Positions 7,000 to 59,882 of a stretch of 64,000 bases of DNA are shown here, one piece after another. Positions within the stretch are counted from its first letter, which is position 1; the number at the start of each line of letters is the position of its first letter. Location of the stretch: NCBI GenBank assembly GCA_024679065.1, contig JAGIQG010000006.1, positions 41,850,001 to 41,914,000 of the forward strand. The letters run 5' to 3'. The position numbers were made by a program, and so were the translations under genes. This stretch comes from Sphyrna mokarran (taxonomy: Eukaryota). Below the pieces are notes generated by a model, which made no database searches, was not told the origin of the DNA, and was given only the letters and a program-made list of their open reading frames with translations.

Positions 7000-9852
7000 A
7001 GAGAGCTGTCTTCAGTGGGGCAAGAATGGAACTGGGCTGGCTAGACTAGAACCAAAACTTGATGAGGAAAAACTGGAGCTAAATGATAGACTTCTCTCAA
7101 AGAAGAAATTATTTGGGCATAGTCAAGGTATATTCCCTCAAAAGAAAAGGTAAGACAAACAAATCCAGAGCTCACTGGATGATAAGGGGATAAAAATTAA
7201 GATAAAGAAGAAAAAGTGTGCTTATGCCAAATGTCAGGTAGAAACTATAACTGAGAACAAAGCTGAATGCAAAAGATTCAGAGGAGAAGCGAAGAAGATA
7301 ATGAAAAAGGTGGGCAGACAAAACAAAAGGGAATTCCAAAGTCTTGTATCAGCGTATAAAACATAAAAGCGTGGTAAAAGCAGAAGTAGGGCCGACTAAG
7401 GACTAAAAAGCAATTTACACGTGAGGCAAGGGATATGGTTGAGGTGTTAAGTGAACACTGTTCATCTGCTTGTACCAAGGAAACAGATAATATCCAAGCC
7501 ATGGTGACAGAGTACAAACTCTGTCACAAGAAGGGTTCAGAATTGATAAAGATCAGGTATTGGAAAAACTGTTGGTACTTAAAATGGATAAGGCACTGGG
7601 ACCGGATGCAATGCAGCCAAAGATATTGATGAAAATGAGAGTGAAAATTGCATGGTCATTGACCATAATCATCTTCTCTAGACTCGTGGAATGTGCTGGA
7701 GAACTGGAGAATTTCACTATGCTCTTGTTCAAAAAAGATTGTAAAGATAAGCCCAGCAATTACAGATCAATCGGTTTAATTTAGGTGGTGGAGAAACTTC
7801 TAGTAACAATTATTCAGGATAGAATTGGTAATCACATGGAAAATTGTGGACAGATTAGGGAATTAGAAAGAGCCAGCATGGATTTCTTAAGGGAAGATTG
7901 TGTTTAACTAACTCGTTGGAGTTTTTTGAGGAGGTGACAGAAAGGTGTAATGAAGGCAGTGCTGTTGATATGATGTACATTGACTTCAAGAAGACGTTTG
8001 AAACAATGCCACACAACAGTGTTGTGAGAAAAGTTATATCCAATGGTATAAAAGGGACAGTAGCAATGTGGATACAAAATTGGCTGAGTAATAAGAAACA
8101 GCGAGTAATGATTAATCGATAGTTTTGGGCTAGAGGAAGGTTTGTAGTAGAGTTCCCCAAGTGTCAGTATTGGGACTTTGCTTTTCCTGATATATATTAA
8201 TGATCTAGATCTTTGTGAATGATACAAAACTTGGAAATATTGTAAACTGTGAGGAGGACAGTATAAGTTGGTGGAGTGAACAGATAGATGGCATGAAGTT
8301 CAATGCAGAGAAACATGAGGTGATTTGGTTTGGTAGGAAAAACTTGGAGAGACAACATTTAATAAGAAAAACTGTAAAGTGTGTGGAGGAGAAGAGAGAC
8401 CTGGTGGATATGTACATAGATTGCTAAAGATAGCATGATTGGTGGAGAGAGCAGTTCATAAAGCTTAAAGCTTGCTTTATTAATAATGATGTAGCGTACA
8501 AAGGCAAGAAGGTTATGTTGAACTTATTCAGAGCACCAGGATAGAACGAGGGGTCACGGGCTTAGGGCGAGGGGGGCTATGTATAAGACGAATATTAGAG
8601 GGCAGTTTTTCACACAGAGGGTAGTGGGGGTGTGGAATGCACTGCCGAGTAAGGTGGTGGGAGCAGGCACGCTAGGGTTGTTTAAGGGTCTCTTGGACAG
8701 CCACATGAGCGGTCTGCGGATAGAGGGATATAGTAGGACTGTCTAAATATCGGGAGCTTTGGGACGACCAAATAGTATTAGAATATCTTTTAGTTTTGTC
8801 TCAGGGATGTCTATCCCTGAGTTTTTCTCATGTTTACTGTCTTATTTGTTTCCACAGGCAATTCGGTCCACCTTGACCAACAAGGTGCATGCACTCGGCA
8901 GGTCGTGCGAGGGCTGCTCTTGGATGTTGCTTCAGGAGTGGCCTAGTGCTTCACGTCGTTAGTGTATGCTTAAACTGGACCATCTGATGGGCAACATGAC
9001 AGCTCAGAGACTATCGCTGTTGCTGTGCAGACACATGGATTTGGGCCTGTGTCTGCGGGAATTTGCGCGTTCTCCCCGTGGTTGCGTGGGTTTTCTTCGG
9101 GTGCTCCGGTTTCCTCCCACATCCCAAAAATGTGCTCTTAGGCTGATTGGGTAACAAATTGTCCCTATATTGGTCCCTATATGGGAATCTTCCACAATAG
9201 GCATAGCCTAAGGTCATGGTTATGTCATAAAGACGTTAAGACGGCGGCGCGGGCTCATTGGGCCGAAGGACCTGTTTCCCGTGCTGTGTTGTTCTTTGTT
9301 CTTTGTTCTTTGTTCTAGCACCAGTTAGATCTCAGCTAGAGTATTGTGTTTTGGGTATCATACTATAGGAAGAATGTGAACACATTGAAGAGAGTGCAGA
9401 GAAAGTTTACAAGAATGCAGGGACGAGAAACTTTAGTTGTGAAGATAGATTGGAACGATTGGGATAGTTTTCTATGGAGAGAAAAATGATAAGAGGAGAT
9501 TTGACAGAGATGATCAAAATCATGACAGTTCTGGACAGAGCAGATAGGGAGAATTTATTCCCGCTCATAAAATGATCAAGAACAAGTGGGAAAAGATTTA
9601 AAGTGATTTAAAAAGAAGCAAATGTGGTTTAAAAAGAAAATTCACTTAGTGAATGGTTCAGTTCTAGAATCAGTGCCTGGAAGTGTAATGGATTCAAGGC
9701 GACATTAGATTATTTGAAAAGAACCAATGTGCAGGGGTATGGGGAAAAGACAGGGGAATGGCACTCAGTCATAATGTTATTCAAAAAGCCCATGCAGACA
9801 TGACTTGCCAAATGACTTCCTTCTGAATTGCAATGTTTCTGTGACTCTGTGA
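7000..9852 (+). mobile_element. Degenerate CR1 LINE ORF2 (linker-RT-3' end), interrupted at 8540-9316
   Basis: KALGPD, NYRSIGL, CLTNSLEFFEEV, IDFKKTF, KFNAEK motifs; resumes after nested insertion; tail ttctgtgactctgtga. Confidence 0.92.
8540..9316 (+). mobile_element. Young CR1 LINE 3' end with long 3' UTR containing a V-SINE-derived segment
   Basis: Open frame 8543-8746 RTRGHGLR...FFTQRVVGVWNALP...*; (TTCTTTG)n tail; 8 bp TSD AGCACCAG at 8532-8539 and 9317-9324. Confidence 0.92.
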
Positions 9853-14320: not shown

Positions 14321-14456
14321 CAATAAAAAAAACGGTTAGTCATATGTTGTATCAGGAAATCTGAGGCTCCATAAAGCTGGAAGATGATTTTTACACAATA
14401 GCATCTTATCTGGTTCCACTGACCTTTCATACAGGGCTGGTTTATTAATGGTATGA

Positions 14457-14996
14457 TGGCACAGTGGCTAGCATTGCTGTCTCACAGTGCTAGGGACTCA
14501 ACTTTGAATCTTGGCTTGGGTCATTGTCTTCCCATGTCTGCATGAGTTTTTTTTTAAAGAGCAACACAGCACGGGAAACAGGCCCTTCGGCCCAACGAGC
14601 CCGCGCCGCCGTCATAACTATATAGTAGCAATTCCATTATCCTATTCTAAATTTAGGTTATTCTTAATATGGAAGACTCTCACTATAGGGACAATTTGTT
14701 TCTCAATCAGCCTAAGAGCGAATTTTTGGGTTGTGGGAGGAAACCGGAGTGCCCGGAGAAAACCCACGCAACCACGGGGAGAACGCGCAAACTCCCGCAG
14801 ACACCAGCCCAATTTCAAGTTTCCTCCTGGTGTTCCGGTATCCACCCACAGACTGAAAGACGTGCTGATTAGGTGCATTGGCCATGCTAAATTCTCCCTC
14901 AATGTACCCAAACAGATGCTGGAAAGTGGCAACTGGGGGATTTTCATGGTAAGTTCATTGTAGTGTTAATGTAAGCCTACTTGTGACACAAATAGA
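14457..14996 (+). mobile_element. HE1-type V-SINE interrupted by an antisense insertion
   Basis: Head tggcacagtggctagcattgctgtctcacag; V-domain split at about 14548/14818; tail gtaagcctacttgtgac. Confidence 0.9.
14550..14817 (-). mobile_element. 5'-truncated copy of the V-domain-bearing CR1 3' UTR family
   Basis: Reverse complement matches 9040-9170 and 9240-9296; possible TSD AGTTT. Confidence 0.85.
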
Positions 14997-19227: not shown

Positions 19228-19831
19228 ATCGAGGGATTGAGTTCAGGAGTCAGGAGGTAATGCTGCTTTATAGGACCCTTGCCAGACCACACTTGGAGTA
19301 CTGTGCGCAGTTCTGGTCGCCTCACTATAGGAAGGACGTGGAAGCTATTGAAAGGGTGCAGAGGAGATTTACAAGGATGTTGCCTGGATTGGGAGGCATG
19401 CCTTATGAAGACAGGTTGAGGGAGCTGGGACTGTTCTCCCTGGAGAGACGAAGGTTGAGAGGCGACCTGATAGAGGTTTACAAGATGTTGAGAGGAATAG
19501 ATAGGGTGGACTGTCAGAGACTATTTCCCAGGGCTGAAATGGTCGCGACGAGAGGGCACAGATTTAAGGTGCAGGAAAGCAAGTACAGAGGGGATGCTAG
19601 GGGAAAGTTTTTCACTTAGATGGTGGTGAGTGAATGGAATCGGCTGCCGTCGGTGGTGGTCGAGGTGAACTCACTGGGGTCTTTTAAAAGACTTCTGGAT
19701 GAGAATATGGGATCCAATGGGATTGGGGGTTATAGATAGGTCTATGGCTGGGTAGGTTTTTGATGTGTTCGGCACAACTTGTGGGCCGAAGGGCCTGTTT
19801 GTGCTGTAGTGTTCTATGTTCTATGTTCTAT
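19228..19831 (+). mobile_element. Young CR1 LINE 3' end
   Basis: ORF RPHLEYCAQFWSPHYRKD...ERRRLRGDLIEVYK; (TTCTATG)n tail; CpG retained. Confidence 0.95.
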
Positions 19832-20019
19832 GAGCTGTCTGCCCAACCCAATGACCCAACTCCCTTGGAACATCTCCACCACAAAGTTTTGTAAAGTTTG
19901 GAGTAGCCATGATTGTTGTTATCTTTACCACTCCCCCATCACCCACATCCTCCCTCTCTTAAACATTAATATCCCTCCCATGCCCTTCCATTTATCCTTC
20001 TGATGATTACCCTTCAACT

Positions 20020-22265: not shown

Positions 22266-23179
22266 ACATGGAACATAGAACATAGAACATTACAGCGCAG
22301 TACAGGCCCTTTGGCCCTTGATGTTGGGCCGACAAGTGGAACCAATCTAATCACCCTCTAACCTCAACTATTCCAATGTTGTCCATATGCCTATCCATTG
22401 ACCATTTGAATGCCCTTAATGTTGGCGAGTCCACAACTGCTGCAGGCAGGGCATTCCATGCTCTTACTACCCTCTGAGTAAAGAACCTACCTCTGATATC
22501 CATCCTATAACTACCACCCCTTAATTTAAAGCTACATCCCCTCGTGTTAGCCATCACTATCCAAGGAAAAAGACTCTCATTGTCTACTCTATCTAACCCT
22601 CTGATCATCTTGTATGCCTCAATTAGGTCACCTCTTAACCTTCTTCTCTCTAATGAAAATAACCTCAAGTCCTTCAGCCTTTCCTCATAAGACCTTCCCA
22701 CCATACCAGGCAACATCCTGGTAAACCTCCTCTGCACCCTTTCCAATGCCCCTACATCTTTCTTATAATGCGGTGACCAGAACTGTATGCAATACTCCAA
22801 GTGTAGCTGCACCAGAATTTTGCACAGTTGCAACATGACCTCACGGCTCTGAAATTCAATCCCTCTATCAATAAAAGCTGACACACTGTATGCCTCCTTA
22901 ACAACCTTATCAACCTGGGTACCATCTTTCAGAGAGCTAGGCACATGTACACCGAGATCTCTCTGCTCATCGACACAACTAAGAGTCCTTCCATTAGCCC
23001 TATATTCTGTACTCCTGTTACTCTTACCAAAGTGAATCACCTCACACTTTTCCACATTAAACTCCATTTGCCACCTCTTGGCCCAGCTCTGCAGCTTATC
23101 TATGTCCCTCTGCAAACTGTAACATCCATCCTCACTGTCTACAACTCCTCCGACTTTGGTGTCGTCAGCAAACTATCAA
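22266..23179 (-). mobile_element. Young CR1 LINE 3' part (254 aa ORF, truncated at FADD)
   Basis: WQMEFNVEKC, HLEYCIQFWSP, FFTQRVVRAWNALP; (GAACATA)n tail; TSD TAAGGA at 22260-22265 and 23180-23185. Confidence 0.95.
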
Positions 23180-23180
23180 T

Positions 23181-23605
23181 AAGGAGAGGTTGGAGAAACT
23201 TGATTTGTTGTCATTGGAGTGACAGAGATTGAGGGAAGACCTCTTAGAAGTCTATAAGATCATGACAGAGTGAATAGTCAGAAGCTTTTTCCCAGGGTGG
23301 AAGAATCAGTTACTAGGGGGCACAGGTTTAAGGTCTGAGGGCAAGATTTAAAAGAGATGTACGAGACAGATTTTTTACACAAAGTGTGGTGGATGCCTGG
23401 AACTCATTGCCAGGGGAGGTAGTGGAAGCGGATACAGTAGTGACTTTTAAGGGGTGTCTTGACAAGTACATGAATGAGATGGGAATAGAGGGATATGGTT
23501 CCCAGAAAGGTAAAGGGTTTTAATTAAGTTGGACACTATGCTCAATGCAGACTTGGAAGGCCAAAAGGCCTATTCCTGTGCTGTAATTTTCTTTGTTCTT
23601 TGTTC
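23181..23605 (+). mobile_element. CR1 LINE 3' end
   Basis: EERLEKL, TRGHRFKV, WNSLP-like; tail ttctttgttctttgttc. Confidence 0.92.
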
Positions 23606-28234: not shown

Positions 28235-29000
28235 TCATTTTGGAAGGTCTCATACAGACAGGAAATATACAGTAAATGGCAGAACCTTAGGAGTATTGAC
28301 AGGCAAAGGGATCTGAGTGTACGGGTACACAGGTCACTGAAAGTGGCAATGGAGGTGAATAAGGCAATCAAGAAGGCATACAACATGCCTGCCTTCATTG
28401 GCCGGGACACTGAGTTTAAAAATTGGCAGTTTTATAGAACCTTAGGCTGCACTTGGAATATAATGTTCAATTCTGGTCATCACACTACCAGAATGATGTG
28501 AAGGCTTTGGAGAGGATACAGAAAAAATTACCAAGATGTTGCCTGGTATGGAGGGCATTAGCTGTGAGGAACGATTGGAGAAACATGGTTTGTTCTCACT
28601 GGAATGATGGAGGTTGAAGGGTGACCTGATAGAACTCTACAAAATTATGAGAAGCATGGACAGATTGGATAGAAGCCTTTTCCAAGGCTGGAAAAGTCAA
28701 TTACTAGGGGCCACAAGTTTAAGGTGTGAGGGGCAAGGTTTAAAGGAGATGTAGGTGGCAGATGTTTTACACAGAGGGTGATGGGCATTGGAACTCGTTG
28801 TCAGGGGAGGTAGTGGCAGCAGATACGACAGTGACTTTTAAGGGCATCTTGACACGTACATGAATAGAAAGGGAACAGAGGGATATGGTCCCCAGAAGGA
28901 TAGGCGGTTTTAGTTAAGTCAGGCAGCATGGACCTTGTAAGCTTGGAGGGCTGAAGGGCCTGTTCCTGCGCTGTAATTTTTTTTGTTCTTTCTTCTTTGC
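28235..29000 (+). mobile_element. CR1 LINE 3' part
   Basis: HFGR...YTVNGR, DLSVRV, HLEY, RL.GDLIE; tail tttgttctttcttcttt. Confidence 0.92.
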
Positions 29001-52519: not shown

Positions 52520-53588
52520 GTGATTGAGCTAATTGGATTAGGAATTGGCTAGCAGATGGAAGACAGAGGGTGGTAGTTGATGGGAGATATTCATCGTGGA
52601 GTTCGGTTACTAGTGGTGTACCTCAGGGATCTGTTTTGGGGCCCCTGCTGTTTGTAATTTTTATAAATGATCTGGATGAGGGTATTGAAGGATGGATTAG
52701 TAAATTTGCAGATGACACCAAAGTCGGAGGAGTGGTAGATAGTGAAGAGGGGTGTTATAGTTTGCAGAGAGACTTGGACAAGTTGCAGAGCTGGGCCGAG
52801 AGGTGGCAAATGGAGTTTAATGTGGAAAAGTGTGAGGTAATTCACTTTGGCAGGAATAACAAATGTGTAGAGTATAGGGCTAATGGTAGGACTCTTAATA
52901 GTGTTGATGAACAGAGGGATCTTGGTGTATATGTGCATAGATCCCTGAAAGTTGGCAATCAAGTCGATAAGGTTGTTAAGAAGGCATACGGAGTCTTAGC
53001 TTTTATTGGTAGGGGGATTGAATTTCGGAGCCGCAACGTCATGTTGCAACTGTACAAAACTCTAGTGCGGCCGCACTTGGAGTATTGTGTACAGTTCTGG
53101 TCCCCGCATTATAAGAAAGATGTGGAGGCATTGGAGAGGGTACAGAGGAGGTTTACCAGGATGTTGCCTGGTATGGAGGGCAGGTCTTATGAAGAGAGGC
53201 TGAGGGATTTGAGGTTGTTTTCGTTAGAAAGAAGGCGGCTAAGAGGAGACCTTATTGAAACATATAAGATGATTAGAGGTTTAGATAGGGTGGACAGTGA
53301 TAGCCTTTTTCCTAGGATGGAGAAAGCTAGCACGAGGGGACATAGCTTTAAATTAAGGGGTGGTGGTTTAGGACAGATGTCAGAGGTAGGTTCTTTACCC
53401 AGAGGGTGGTAAGAGTATGGAATGCCTTGCCTGCTGCAGTTGTAGATGCGCCAAGTTTGGTGGCGTTTAAGAGGTTAGTAGATAAGTTTATGGATGAAAA
53501 GGGAATGGTTTAGGTTAGAGGGTCACTGCTTGTTCCTAATTTGTCGGCACAACATTGAAGGCCGAAGGGCCTGTTCTGCACTGTAATG
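52520..53588 (+). mobile_element. Young CR1 LINE 3' part (280 aa ORF with RT motifs)
   Basis: GVPQGSVLGP, KFADDTK, RPHLEYC; (TTCTATG)n tail. Confidence 0.97.
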
Positions 53589-53757
53589 TTCTATGTTCTA
53601 TGTTCTATATAATGTTAGACATTGCCTCATTATACTCAATTAGTCTCGTCGTGGGTCCAGTAAGTTTGGAATCTTGAAACCATAGGCTCTTTTTCTAATG
53701 GGCACATCTTCCCTTGGTTGAAAAGCTTACACTCTAAAAAAATAAAGACTTCAAACT

Positions 53758-56859: not shown

Positions 56860-59800
56860 AATATGCCAGGGAGGATGGGAATCTATGTCAGGAGTCTGAG
56901 AGGGAGGGAGCAAGGACAAAATGTGGGAGGAAGGTTCCAACAACATCAAAAATTAGGAAATAAGTTAAAAGGAAGGAGAACTCAAGATATTATGAATGAA
57001 AGTGTTAGAATTCAAAAAGAAAGTACAAAAACTAGCATAAGGGCACTTTATCTAAATGCTTGTAGGATTTGAAACAAAGTAAATGAGTTGACAGCACAAA
57101 TTATGACGAATGAGTATGATTTGGTGGCCATTACAGAGATGTAGTTGCAGAATGGTGACAACTGGGCGTTGAATATTCAGGGGTATCAGACTGTTCGGAG
57201 GGACTGAAAGGAAGGTGAGGGAGGTAGTTAGCTCTGATATTTAAGGATGACATCAGGACGATAATGAGAGATAATATAGGTTCTATGAAGAAAAGGTTGA
57301 ATCCATTTGGGTGGAAATTAGAAATAGTAAGGAGAAAAAATTACTGATAGGTGTAATCTATAGGCCACCAAATAATAACATCACGGTGGGGCAAGGAATA
57401 TTCAAAGAAATAACCGATGCATGTAAAAATGGTACAGCAATTATCATGAAGGATTTTAATCTACGTCTCAATTGATCAAATCAGGTTGATCAAGGCAGCC
57501 TTGAAGAGACGTTCATAGAATGTATCCACGAAGGCTTCCTTGAACAGTATGTAATGGAACTGACAAGGGAGCAAGCTATTATCGATCTTGTACTATGTAT
57601 TGAGACAGGAATAATTAAGATCTTGCAGTTAGGGATCCTCTTGGAAGAAGCGACCGCAGCATGGTTGAATTTAAAATACAGATGAGCATGAGAAAGAAAA
57701 ATCCAATATCAGTGTCTTGTGTTTAAACAAAAGAAACTATAAAGAGATGAGGGAGGAATTGGCTAAGATAAACTGGGAGCAAAAACTTTATTATGGGACA
57801 ATTGGGGAACAGTGGAGGACTTTCAAAGTGATCTTTCACAGTGCTCAGCAAAAGTACATGTGAGGGATAAGGAAGGACTGTAGAAAAAGAAATAATCAGC
57901 CAAGGATATCTAAGGAAATAAAGGAGGGTATCAAATTGAAAGAAAATGCATACAAAGTGGCAAAAATAAATGGGAAGGTAGAGAATTGGAAAATCTTTAA
58001 AGGTCAGCAGAAAGCCATGAAGAAAAAACTATAAAGGTAAGATGGATTATGAGAGTAAACCAGCTCAGAAAATAAAAACAGAGTTTTTACAAATATATAA
58101 AGTTTTTAGAAAATTTCTACAAATATATAAAATGAAAAAAAGTGGTGAAAATAAAGATTGGTTGTTTAAAAGGCGAGAAGGGGGGTGTAATAACTGGAAG
58201 TAAGAAAATGGCTGAGGCATTAAACAAGTATTTTGCATTGGTCTTCACAGTGGAAGATACAAATAACATGCCAAAAATTGATGACAGGAAGGCTATGACA
58301 GGTGGGAACCTAAGAACTATTATTATTGCGAAAGAGTGTTAAGCAAGTTAAGGAAGCTAAGTCTCCTAGTCCTGATGGAATGGCAGGAGAAATAGCAAAT
58401 GCACCAGTGGTAATTTAATAAAATTCGCTGGATTCTGGGTTGGTTCCTGCAGTTTGGAAAACAGCAAATGTGATGCCAATATTTAAAAAAAGGAGGTAGG
58501 CAAAAGGCAGGTAACTATAGGCTGGTTAGCTTAATGTTTATAGTAGAGAAAATGCTTGAATTTATCATCAAGGAAGAAATAGTGAGACATCTGGATGTAG
58601 ATTGTCCATTGATAAGATGCAATATGGATTTATGAAGGACAGGTCATGTTTGACTAATTTGGTGGAATTCTTTGAGAACATTACATGTGCAATGGACAAT
58701 GGGGAACCTGTGGATGTGGTGTATCTGGATTTCCAGAAGGCATTTGATAAGGTGCTGCACCAAAGACTGCTGCATAAGATAAAGGTGCACAGTGTTATGT
58801 GTAAAGTATTAGCACGGATAGAGGATTGGTTAACTAACATAAAGCAAAGAGTAGGGGTAAATGGGTCTTTTTCTGGTTGGCGATCAATGACTAATGATGT
58901 GCCTCAGGGATCGGTGTTGGGACTGCAATTATTTACAATTTACATAGATGATTTGGAGTTGAGAACCAAGTGTAGTGTGTAAAATTTGCAGATGATACTA
59001 AGATGGGTGGAAGAGCAAAATGTATAAGAGTACACCAGAAGTCTACAAAAGAATATAGATAATCTAAGTGAATGGGCCAGAATCTAACGGATGGAGTACA
59101 ATGTTGGTAAATGTGAGGTCATCCATTTTGGTAGGAATAACAGCAAAATGGACAATTATTTAATTGGGACCTGGAAATCCTTGTGCAGGAATCTCAAGAA
59201 GTTGGTTTGTAGGTGCAGCAGGCAATTAAGAAGGCAAGTGGAATTTTGTCCTTCATTGCTAGAAGGATGCAGTTTAAGAACAGTGAGATTATGTTGCAGC
59301 TGTGTAAGGTGCTGGTGAGGCCACACCTGGAGTACTGTGTACCATTTTGGTCTTCTTACTTGAAAAAGGATATACTGGCACTGGAGAGGGTGCAGAGGAG
59401 ATTCACTAGCTTGATTCTGGAGTTGAAAATGTTGGCTTATGAGGAGAGATTGAGTAGACTGGGGTTATACTCATTGGAATTCAGAAGAATGAGGGGAGAT
59501 CTCATAGAAATGTATAAGATTATGAAGGGAATAGATAAGATAAAAGCAGGGAAGTTGTTTTGGCTGACAGTGAAATGAGAATTAGGGGCCCAGCTCCAAA
59601 ATAAGGACTGAGTTGAGGAGGAACCTCTTCACACAAAGGGTTATGAATCTGTGGAATTCCCTGCCTAGTGAATCAGTTGAGTTTACCTCATTGAATGTTT
59701 TTAAGGCAGGAATAAATAAATTTTTGAACAGTAAAGAAATTAAGGGTTATGATGAGCTGGCAGGTAGGTGGAGCTGAGTCCACAAAAAGATCAGCCATGA

Positions 59801-59882
59801 TCTTATTGAATGGCACAGCAGGCTCGAGGGGCCAGATGGCCTACTCATGATCCTAGTTCTTATGTTCTTATGTTCTTATATG
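56860..59882 (+). mobile_element. CR1/HER1 LINE with near-complete but disrupted ORF2 (APE endonuclease plus RT)
   Basis: LYLNACRI, VAITE, YRPP, SD.SMV, NYR..SL, YLDFQKAFDKV, VPQGSVLG, FADDTK; (TTCTTATG)n tail; many stops and frameshifts. Confidence 0.95.

Follow-up and report, generated by a model that had tools for sequence, protein, structure and literature searches.

The 3' part of a young CR1 insertion in the window (the whole 64-kb stretch of DNA analysed) joins the end of an ORF2 to a remodelled V-SINE body. The insertion probably belongs to a young cartilaginous-fish CR1 subfamily that took a promoter-dead V-SINE of the HE1 type as its 3' end, the copy in the window being 5'-truncated, and an autonomous LINE family likely propagates this V-bearing module. 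The usual direction of sequence flow is from LINE to SINE. The names HE1, CR1 and shark are applied to sequences of the window as our assumption and after the first-pass annotation rather than from a database match, and the CR1 clade name of the ORF2 end is likewise presumed.

The insertion is 777 nt long (8540-9316, + strand), is sited within an older CR1 and is flanked by an exact 8-bp target site duplication (TSD):
7000-9760 (limits approximate), + strand, old decayed CR1 that hosts the insertion, recognised from its sequence, by tblastn of P0001 and P0003 and from the frame restored at the empty site
8532-8539, + strand, 5' copy of the TSD, AGCACCAG, an exact match to 9317-9324
9317-9324, + strand, 3' copy of the TSD, AGCACCAG, an exact match to 8532-8539

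In silico deletion of the insert together with one TSD copy produced a continuous CR1-like frame of the host element across the site. Thus, the 8-bp duplication is the true target site. Neither an inner TSD nor an inner tail was seen inside the insertion. Around 8990-9316 no direct repeat other than the outer TSD was found within the 120 nt examined, so the V-SINE part has no TSD of its own. The ORF2 end, the unique UTR, the head remnant, the V-domain and the tail were delivered together by one insertion event, as the first-pass annotation had claimed in describing a single insertion with an 8 bp TSD. The ratio of observed to expected CpG (o/e) is 0.62-1.06 in all segments of the insertion except the head, where it is 0.25; that of the host CR1 is 0.21.

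The 3' UTR runs from 243 nt of unique folded sequence through an HE1-like head, a shortened B-box region and the V-domain to a CR1 stem-loop and a microsatellite. The parts of the insertion are:
8540-8746, + strand, 5'-truncated CR1 ORF2 C-terminus of 68 codons and TAA, identified from the open frame and the relatives P0001 and P0002
8747-8989, + strand, unique proximal 3' UTR, strongly folded relative to shuffles, CpG o/e 0.62, single in the window
8800-8821, + strand, perfect 9-bp hairpin in the proximal UTR, found as an inverted-repeat match
8990-9030, + strand, remnant of an HE1-like tRNA-derived head, decayed and limited to its 5' half, with the 7-bp helix 8990-8996/9018-9024 kept and only a loose A-box-like motif
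9027-9056, + strand, 9-bp hairpin across the head-to-V junction, without B-box and 18 nt shorter than HE1, with perfect arms 9027-9035/9048-9056
9049-9169, + strand, V-SINE central (V) domain and 3' extension, CpG-rich, 74-77% identical to old HE1-type copies and 112/121 to the second copy
9170-9239, + strand, AT-rich spacer of variable sequence, preceded by a tandem duplication of 12 nt (9161-9184), 32/39 identical to the second copy over 9173-9211 and poorly alignable elsewhere
9240-9288, + strand, CR1-type 3' stem-loop, from alignment and folding with six CR1 tails, 50/52 identical to the second copy
9289-9316, + strand, terminal 7-nt microsatellite of four copies (4.0 copies of the unit)

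The open ORF2 end occupies the first 204 nt of the insertion (8540-8743) and terminates with TAA at 8744-8746, and the intact C-terminus noted earlier is thereby borne out as 68 open codons followed by a stop. These codons gave no match in Pfam. Their identity to other CR1 ends in the window is 53-55% at best, and the two window copies at this level have upstream frames matching RVT_1. Four relatives of the ORF2 end were found in ENA assemblies, with identities of 88% (P0001), 85% (P0002), 69% and 69%, as proteins only and without DNA context. The last six residues of P0001 are those of the insertion's ORF2, with the stop at the corresponding place. P0001 and P0002 mark out a distinct ORF2 lineage with its stop at a common place. 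By eye, the first ~20 residues of P0002 resemble the translated 3' tail of another CR1, and P0002 also seems to adjoin an older CR1.

The UTR of the insertion is 570 nt long versus 93, 80, 82, 93 and 99 nt in all five of the other CR1 copies measured in the window, a comparison that left out the frameshifted CR1 copy near 28.9 kb; the earlier description of a ~570 nt UTR, several-fold longer than in the other copies, is therefore correct. Folding of 8747-8989 yielded a z score of -4.26, with none of 200 shuffles equally stable, and 25 control tiles ranged from -2.8 to +0.5. Because it folds so far above chance, the unique UTR is better read as an evolved RNA than as captured flank. The 64-kb window contains no other copy of 8747-8989, and no relic CR1 tail was found within this segment. 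Nine perfect 9-bp hairpins occur in the 64-kb window, equivalent to an expectation of 0.08 for a 570-nt segment; the UTR of the insertion carries two of them.

Searches of the UTR for known RNA or protein families returned no relatives. ARAGORN identified no tRNA in the UTR, and three Rfam matches were rejected, all with E values of 2-9. When two frames of the UTR were translated and searched against proteins, no genuine relative emerged; one frame gave no candidates, and the single match to the other was rejected as a repetitive protein, which we take to resemble a translated CRISPR array. A long imperfect hairpin spans 8884-8972 in the unique UTR, for which no Rfam family scored above chance. 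The same region contains a site resembling an intron end at 8834-8859 (+ strand), with a branch-point-like word, a pyrimidine tract and CAG/G, which places among the best 14 of the window's 882 sites of this kind. Such an acceptor-like site could allow splicing of upstream exons, or of the LINE itself, onto the V-bearing 3' end.

The alignment of 8990-9030 to the tRNA-derived head of HE1, proposed by the first-pass annotation, depends on how it is sought. With registers corrected by hand, a head matrix built from three heads ranks this segment 7th of 127,920 window positions (shuffle p 0.0007), and one built from four heads ranks it 12th of 127,920 (p 0.002); before that correction the p value was 0.16 for a first matrix and 0.046 for a majority count. 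The segment went undetected both in local alignments with each of four individual HE1 heads (p 0.11-1.0) and in a profile search by nhmmer. The best head match within the UTR lies exactly 60 nt ahead of the V body, with the 7-bp helix and the 21-nt spacing. This helix closes 21 nt, and two old HE1-type copies keep 6/7 of its pairs. Taken together, the sequence modestly supports an HE1-like head at 8990-9030, so that the proposed alignment stands in the hand-set registers and fails with local alignment and nhmmer. The head is identical to old HE1 heads at 59/123 positions versus 83/123 among the old heads themselves, comparisons that are not independent.

The promoter of this head is broken. 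The tRNA-derived head with A and B boxes that characterizes a V-SINE such as HE1 is recognisable in its 5' half only. Between the head and the TTGGG motif ahead of the V body lie 10 nt; the corresponding 28 nt of the HE1 copy at 1.2 kb contain the B-box, a difference of 18 nt. No match to the B-box motif occurs in the 570-nt UTR and the A-box is loose, as judged with consensus motifs that we presume to be the standard ones. The 9-bp hairpin that was earlier said to replace the B-box is indeed perfect and the B-box is absent; however, the junction has been shortened by 18 nt and the V body normally begins with what is here the 3' arm of the hairpin, so that simple replacement is not an apt description. 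The UTR also contains four runs of at least four T. With the B-box absent and these runs present, a SINE built like this and transcribed on its own by Pol III would not be expected to seed young copies.

V-SINEs form a superfamily with an 80-bp central domain. The V body of the insertion shows 74-77% identity to four old copies of HE1 type, all within the window. It contains 7 CpG (o/e 0.85) versus none in two old HE1-type copies, in agreement with the CpG-rich V-domain reported previously at 9050-9165. The V core matches old HE1 copies at 120/160 positions, and the old copies match each other at 189/240 (comparisons that are again not independent). Unlike the head, the V core thus appears no further from old HE1 than the old copies are from each other, which is the only hint of a benefit of the V-domain. 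The tail likewise has the normal CR1 stem-loop and 7-nt repeat that had been described, the stem-loop resembling those of the CR1 copies in the window and the 4.0 repeats lying at 9289-9316. A CR1-UTR profile matches 9249-9308 with an E value of 2e-7, although, with 26.6 bits for the insertion and 27.2 bits for the highest-scoring HE1 tail, it does not distinguish the two. A perfect 8-bp inverted repeat (9137-9144/9205-9212) has one arm where the V part ends and the other in the spacer, and by eye the second copy keeps 6/7 of its pairs despite a diverged spacer.

The window contains a second copy, absent from the first-pass annotation:
14553-14817 (ends approximate), - strand, 5'-truncated relative with V-domain, spacer, tail and a short A run, flanked by a ~5-bp TSD and nested in an old HE1 copy

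It matches the insertion at 112/121 positions in the V part (93%), 50/52 in the tail (96%) and 32/39 over the alignable part of the spacer; an initial spacer identity of 50% was discarded as a global-alignment artefact of the 12-nt duplication. The difference in conservation between V part and spacer (112/121 versus 32/39) has a p value of 0.07. Because of its close identity in the V part and tail, the V-plus-tail module is multi-copy and young, and as judged from sequence it is a lineage of at least two variants that is distinct from ordinary HE1. The head is missing from the truncated second copy, which therefore cannot tell LINE from SINE and may itself be a SINE. Both young copies were inserted into older retroelements, one into the old CR1 (7000-9760) and the other into an old HE1 in opposite orientation (14447-14960). 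At least six more CR1 copies with short UTRs, carrying several tail microsatellites, occur at 19548-19832, 22270-23172, 23332-23605, 28274-28999, 52528-53606 and 59168-59875, and the UTR profile marks 15 tails of CR1 or HE1 type in the 64 kb.

Further copies of the junctions were sought outside the window. No second copy spanning the ORF2-UTR or the UTR-V junction was seen in the window DNA or in protein and pattern scans of collections poor in shark DNA. In viral and prokaryote contigs, which hold little shark DNA, 0/22 and 0/284 candidates for P0001 were confirmed and the V-start pattern was found zero times in each. A single metagenome contig matched the pattern, by chance; it is bacterial and GC-rich. 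In a word search of sequencing runs, 19 of the 22 listed runs, from 12 studies, contain part of the stretch, with word shares of 0.81 (X1), 0.43 (X2), 0.42 (X3 and X4) and 0.31 (X5, with only 1 million letters); runs flagged for a small share were disregarded. The shares of 0.42-0.43 fall under three organism labels, which together with the 0.31 of so small a run fits a repeated sequence, but these shares of X2-X4 are attainable from the V-plus-tail part alone (p 0.11-0.16). Because shares do not locate words, they are no proof of an ORF2-UTR-V junction. Thus, of the central claim of the first-pass annotation, that the 3' UTR of a CR1 LINE captured and remodelled a V-SINE, the composite (ORF2 end, UTR, head without B-box, V-domain and tail in one TSD) and the multi-copy V-plus-tail part hold, and the junction was seen in no second copy.

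Adoption of a V-SINE could have begun in an ancestor in which reverse transcription was primed on V-SINE RNA with a CR1-compatible tail and then switched to LINE RNA; alternatively, LINE read-through into a downstream SINE may have made the SINE the new 3' end of the LINE. A SINE is transcribed from a Pol III promoter located within its head (PMC5499810). Inside a LINE Pol II transcript this promoter would be dispensable, so that the B-box could be lost and the head could drift and refold, and the V core and stem-loop would be retained while the head decayed. The ORF2 protein would bind the terminal stem-loop and prime at the microsatellite, like that of other stringent LINEs; the available part of PMC4176376 describes such LINEs as needing their own 3' stem-loop, bound by ORF2 protein, with zebrafish L2 elements as the case. 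Short truncated copies would resemble headless SINEs, as the 14.6-kb copy does. A SINE without B-box should not be able to seed young copies, yet a young relative exists, which suggests that a longer transcript was needed as carrier. Long-standing adoption by the CR1 lineage also fits three further features: the upstream UTR is folded and rich in CpG, no inner tail was seen, and the head has diverged more than the V core.

A one-off chimera seems unlikely to us. Here reverse transcription would have begun on young V-SINE RNA and switched to CR1 RNA, or the RNAs would have been ligated, the two parts coming from separate families. Template switching is the accepted route of SINE module exchange in the portions of PMC4824008 and PMC5499810 available; in the window, the one further relative comprises no more than V part and tail, and no copy of the junction was seen. 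However, a SINE part without B-box and with a head ~50% diverged from HE1 would be an unconvincing candidate for an active free element, the LINE side would leave a tail-less UTR of 243 nt to be accounted for where 80-99 nt is found elsewhere, and the Alu/L1 chimeras described in the accessible text of bioRxiv 10.1101/2025.02.02.635956 have the reverse order. We give somewhat less credence still to 3' transduction by read-through, in which transcription of a CR1 copy at a single source locus ran on across flanking DNA to an old HE1 downstream and the tail of that HE1 was used; this would yield a small local lineage with the V-domain as a neutral passenger. It would account for both the unique sequence between stop and head and the decayed head, and the acceptor-like intron end at ~8834-8859 (top 14 of 882) could mark captured host DNA. 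Against it, 8747-8989 contains no relic CR1 tail, and its richness in CpG and strong folding set it apart from bulk DNA; the V core, in contrast to old HE1 copies of the genome, still has its CpG sites, and a diverged sister copy lies 5 kb away.

Least probable, and indeed very improbable, is a V-domain native to the UTR of the CR1 lineage, with V-SINE bodies deriving from the LINE, just as the Ceph-domain derives from RTE UTRs, and the likeness to a head being due to chance or secondary. The modest head signal agrees with this, and Kojima 2018 (PMC5786205, in the text available) proposes to derive SINE bodies from LINE UTRs and gives no known source for the conserved bodies. Yet the best head match lies exactly 60 nt before the V body with the 7-bp helix and 21-nt spacing kept, and the V-domain is absent from the five other CR1 types in the window. 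Moreover, V-SINEs range from cnidarians and bivalves to vertebrates in the accessible part of PMC4824008 and are far older than the young copy.

Under adoption of a V-SINE by a CR1 lineage, we infer that the V-domain may benefit the LINE RNA. Retention of the V core because it helps the RNA, in stability or reverse transcription, is the reading we favour, although passive carriage is about equally probable. A broader proposal, which is possible but rather doubtful, is that an active shark CR1 lineage turned its own SINE parasite into its 3' end, with the Pol III promoter deleted and refolded and the V-domain selected across diverging subfamilies, acting on RNA in cis and not in Pol III transcription. 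The function of conserved SINE bodies is called unknown in the available text of Nishihara 2016 (PMC4824008), with RNA stability among the suggestions. A loose parallel for a benefit is the over-representation of 3' UTR Alus in genes yielding processed pseudogenes, as stated in the accessible part of PMC5199112. A LINE family that kept the V-domain after loss of the SINE promoter would separate the two jobs, an autonomous element would permit a direct deletion assay of V-domain function, and some headless 'HE1' copies in shark annotations would be truncated LINEs. A one-off join would amount to an ordinary chimera and hold little interest.

Searches of the open-access literature, without the original HE1 and V-SINE papers, turned up no CR1 described as having a V-domain in its UTR. 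In the available text of Kojima 2018 (PMC5786205), which compares all Repbase SINEs with all Repbase LINEs, no V-domain LINE is reported and the origins of conserved bodies are given as unknown. Our guess is that an unannotated consensus of such an element in Repbase or Dfam has a real, if lesser, chance of existing.

SINE-related sequence within a LINE consensus has been described, in the same text, for RTE-1_DAn (a tRNA-like sequence) and Ingi-3_AC (a Ceph/RTE-like stretch in the 5' UTR); as presented there, these belong to other clades and have neither a V-domain nor a described functional role at the 3' end. The Alu/L1 and U6/L1 chimeric insertions (bioRxiv 10.1101/2025.02.02.635956, accessible text) likewise carry SINE and LINE parts in one sense inside one TSD. 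In them the LINE is at the 3' end and the SINE is mostly full-length and of a concurrently active family, whereas in the present insertion a remodelled SINE with a dead promoter occupies the 3' side. A table in PMC3747384 names HER1 as the LINE that partners HE1. The insertion resembles HER1 and other CR1-clade LINEs of sharks and rays in the motif pattern of the ORF2 C-terminus, 5' truncation, a short TSD, the 3' stem-loop and the 7-nt microsatellite. Of these, the stem-loop with microsatellite and the truncation with TSD are features by which CR1-clade LINEs are recognised. Compared with the CR1 copies of the window, it differs in a UTR of 570 nt versus 80-99 nt, a SINE head remnant, a V-domain and an ORF2 end at most 55% identical to theirs. 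With the HE1 V-SINE it shares a V core 74-77% identical to window HE1-type copies, a head remnant in the expected place and a LINE-type tail. Because it lacks both a B-box and a TSD of its own, the 3' part was not filed as HE1, from which it also differs in a head ~50% diverged, another spacer, a CR1-type microsatellite and its position downstream of an ORF2 stop within one TSD.
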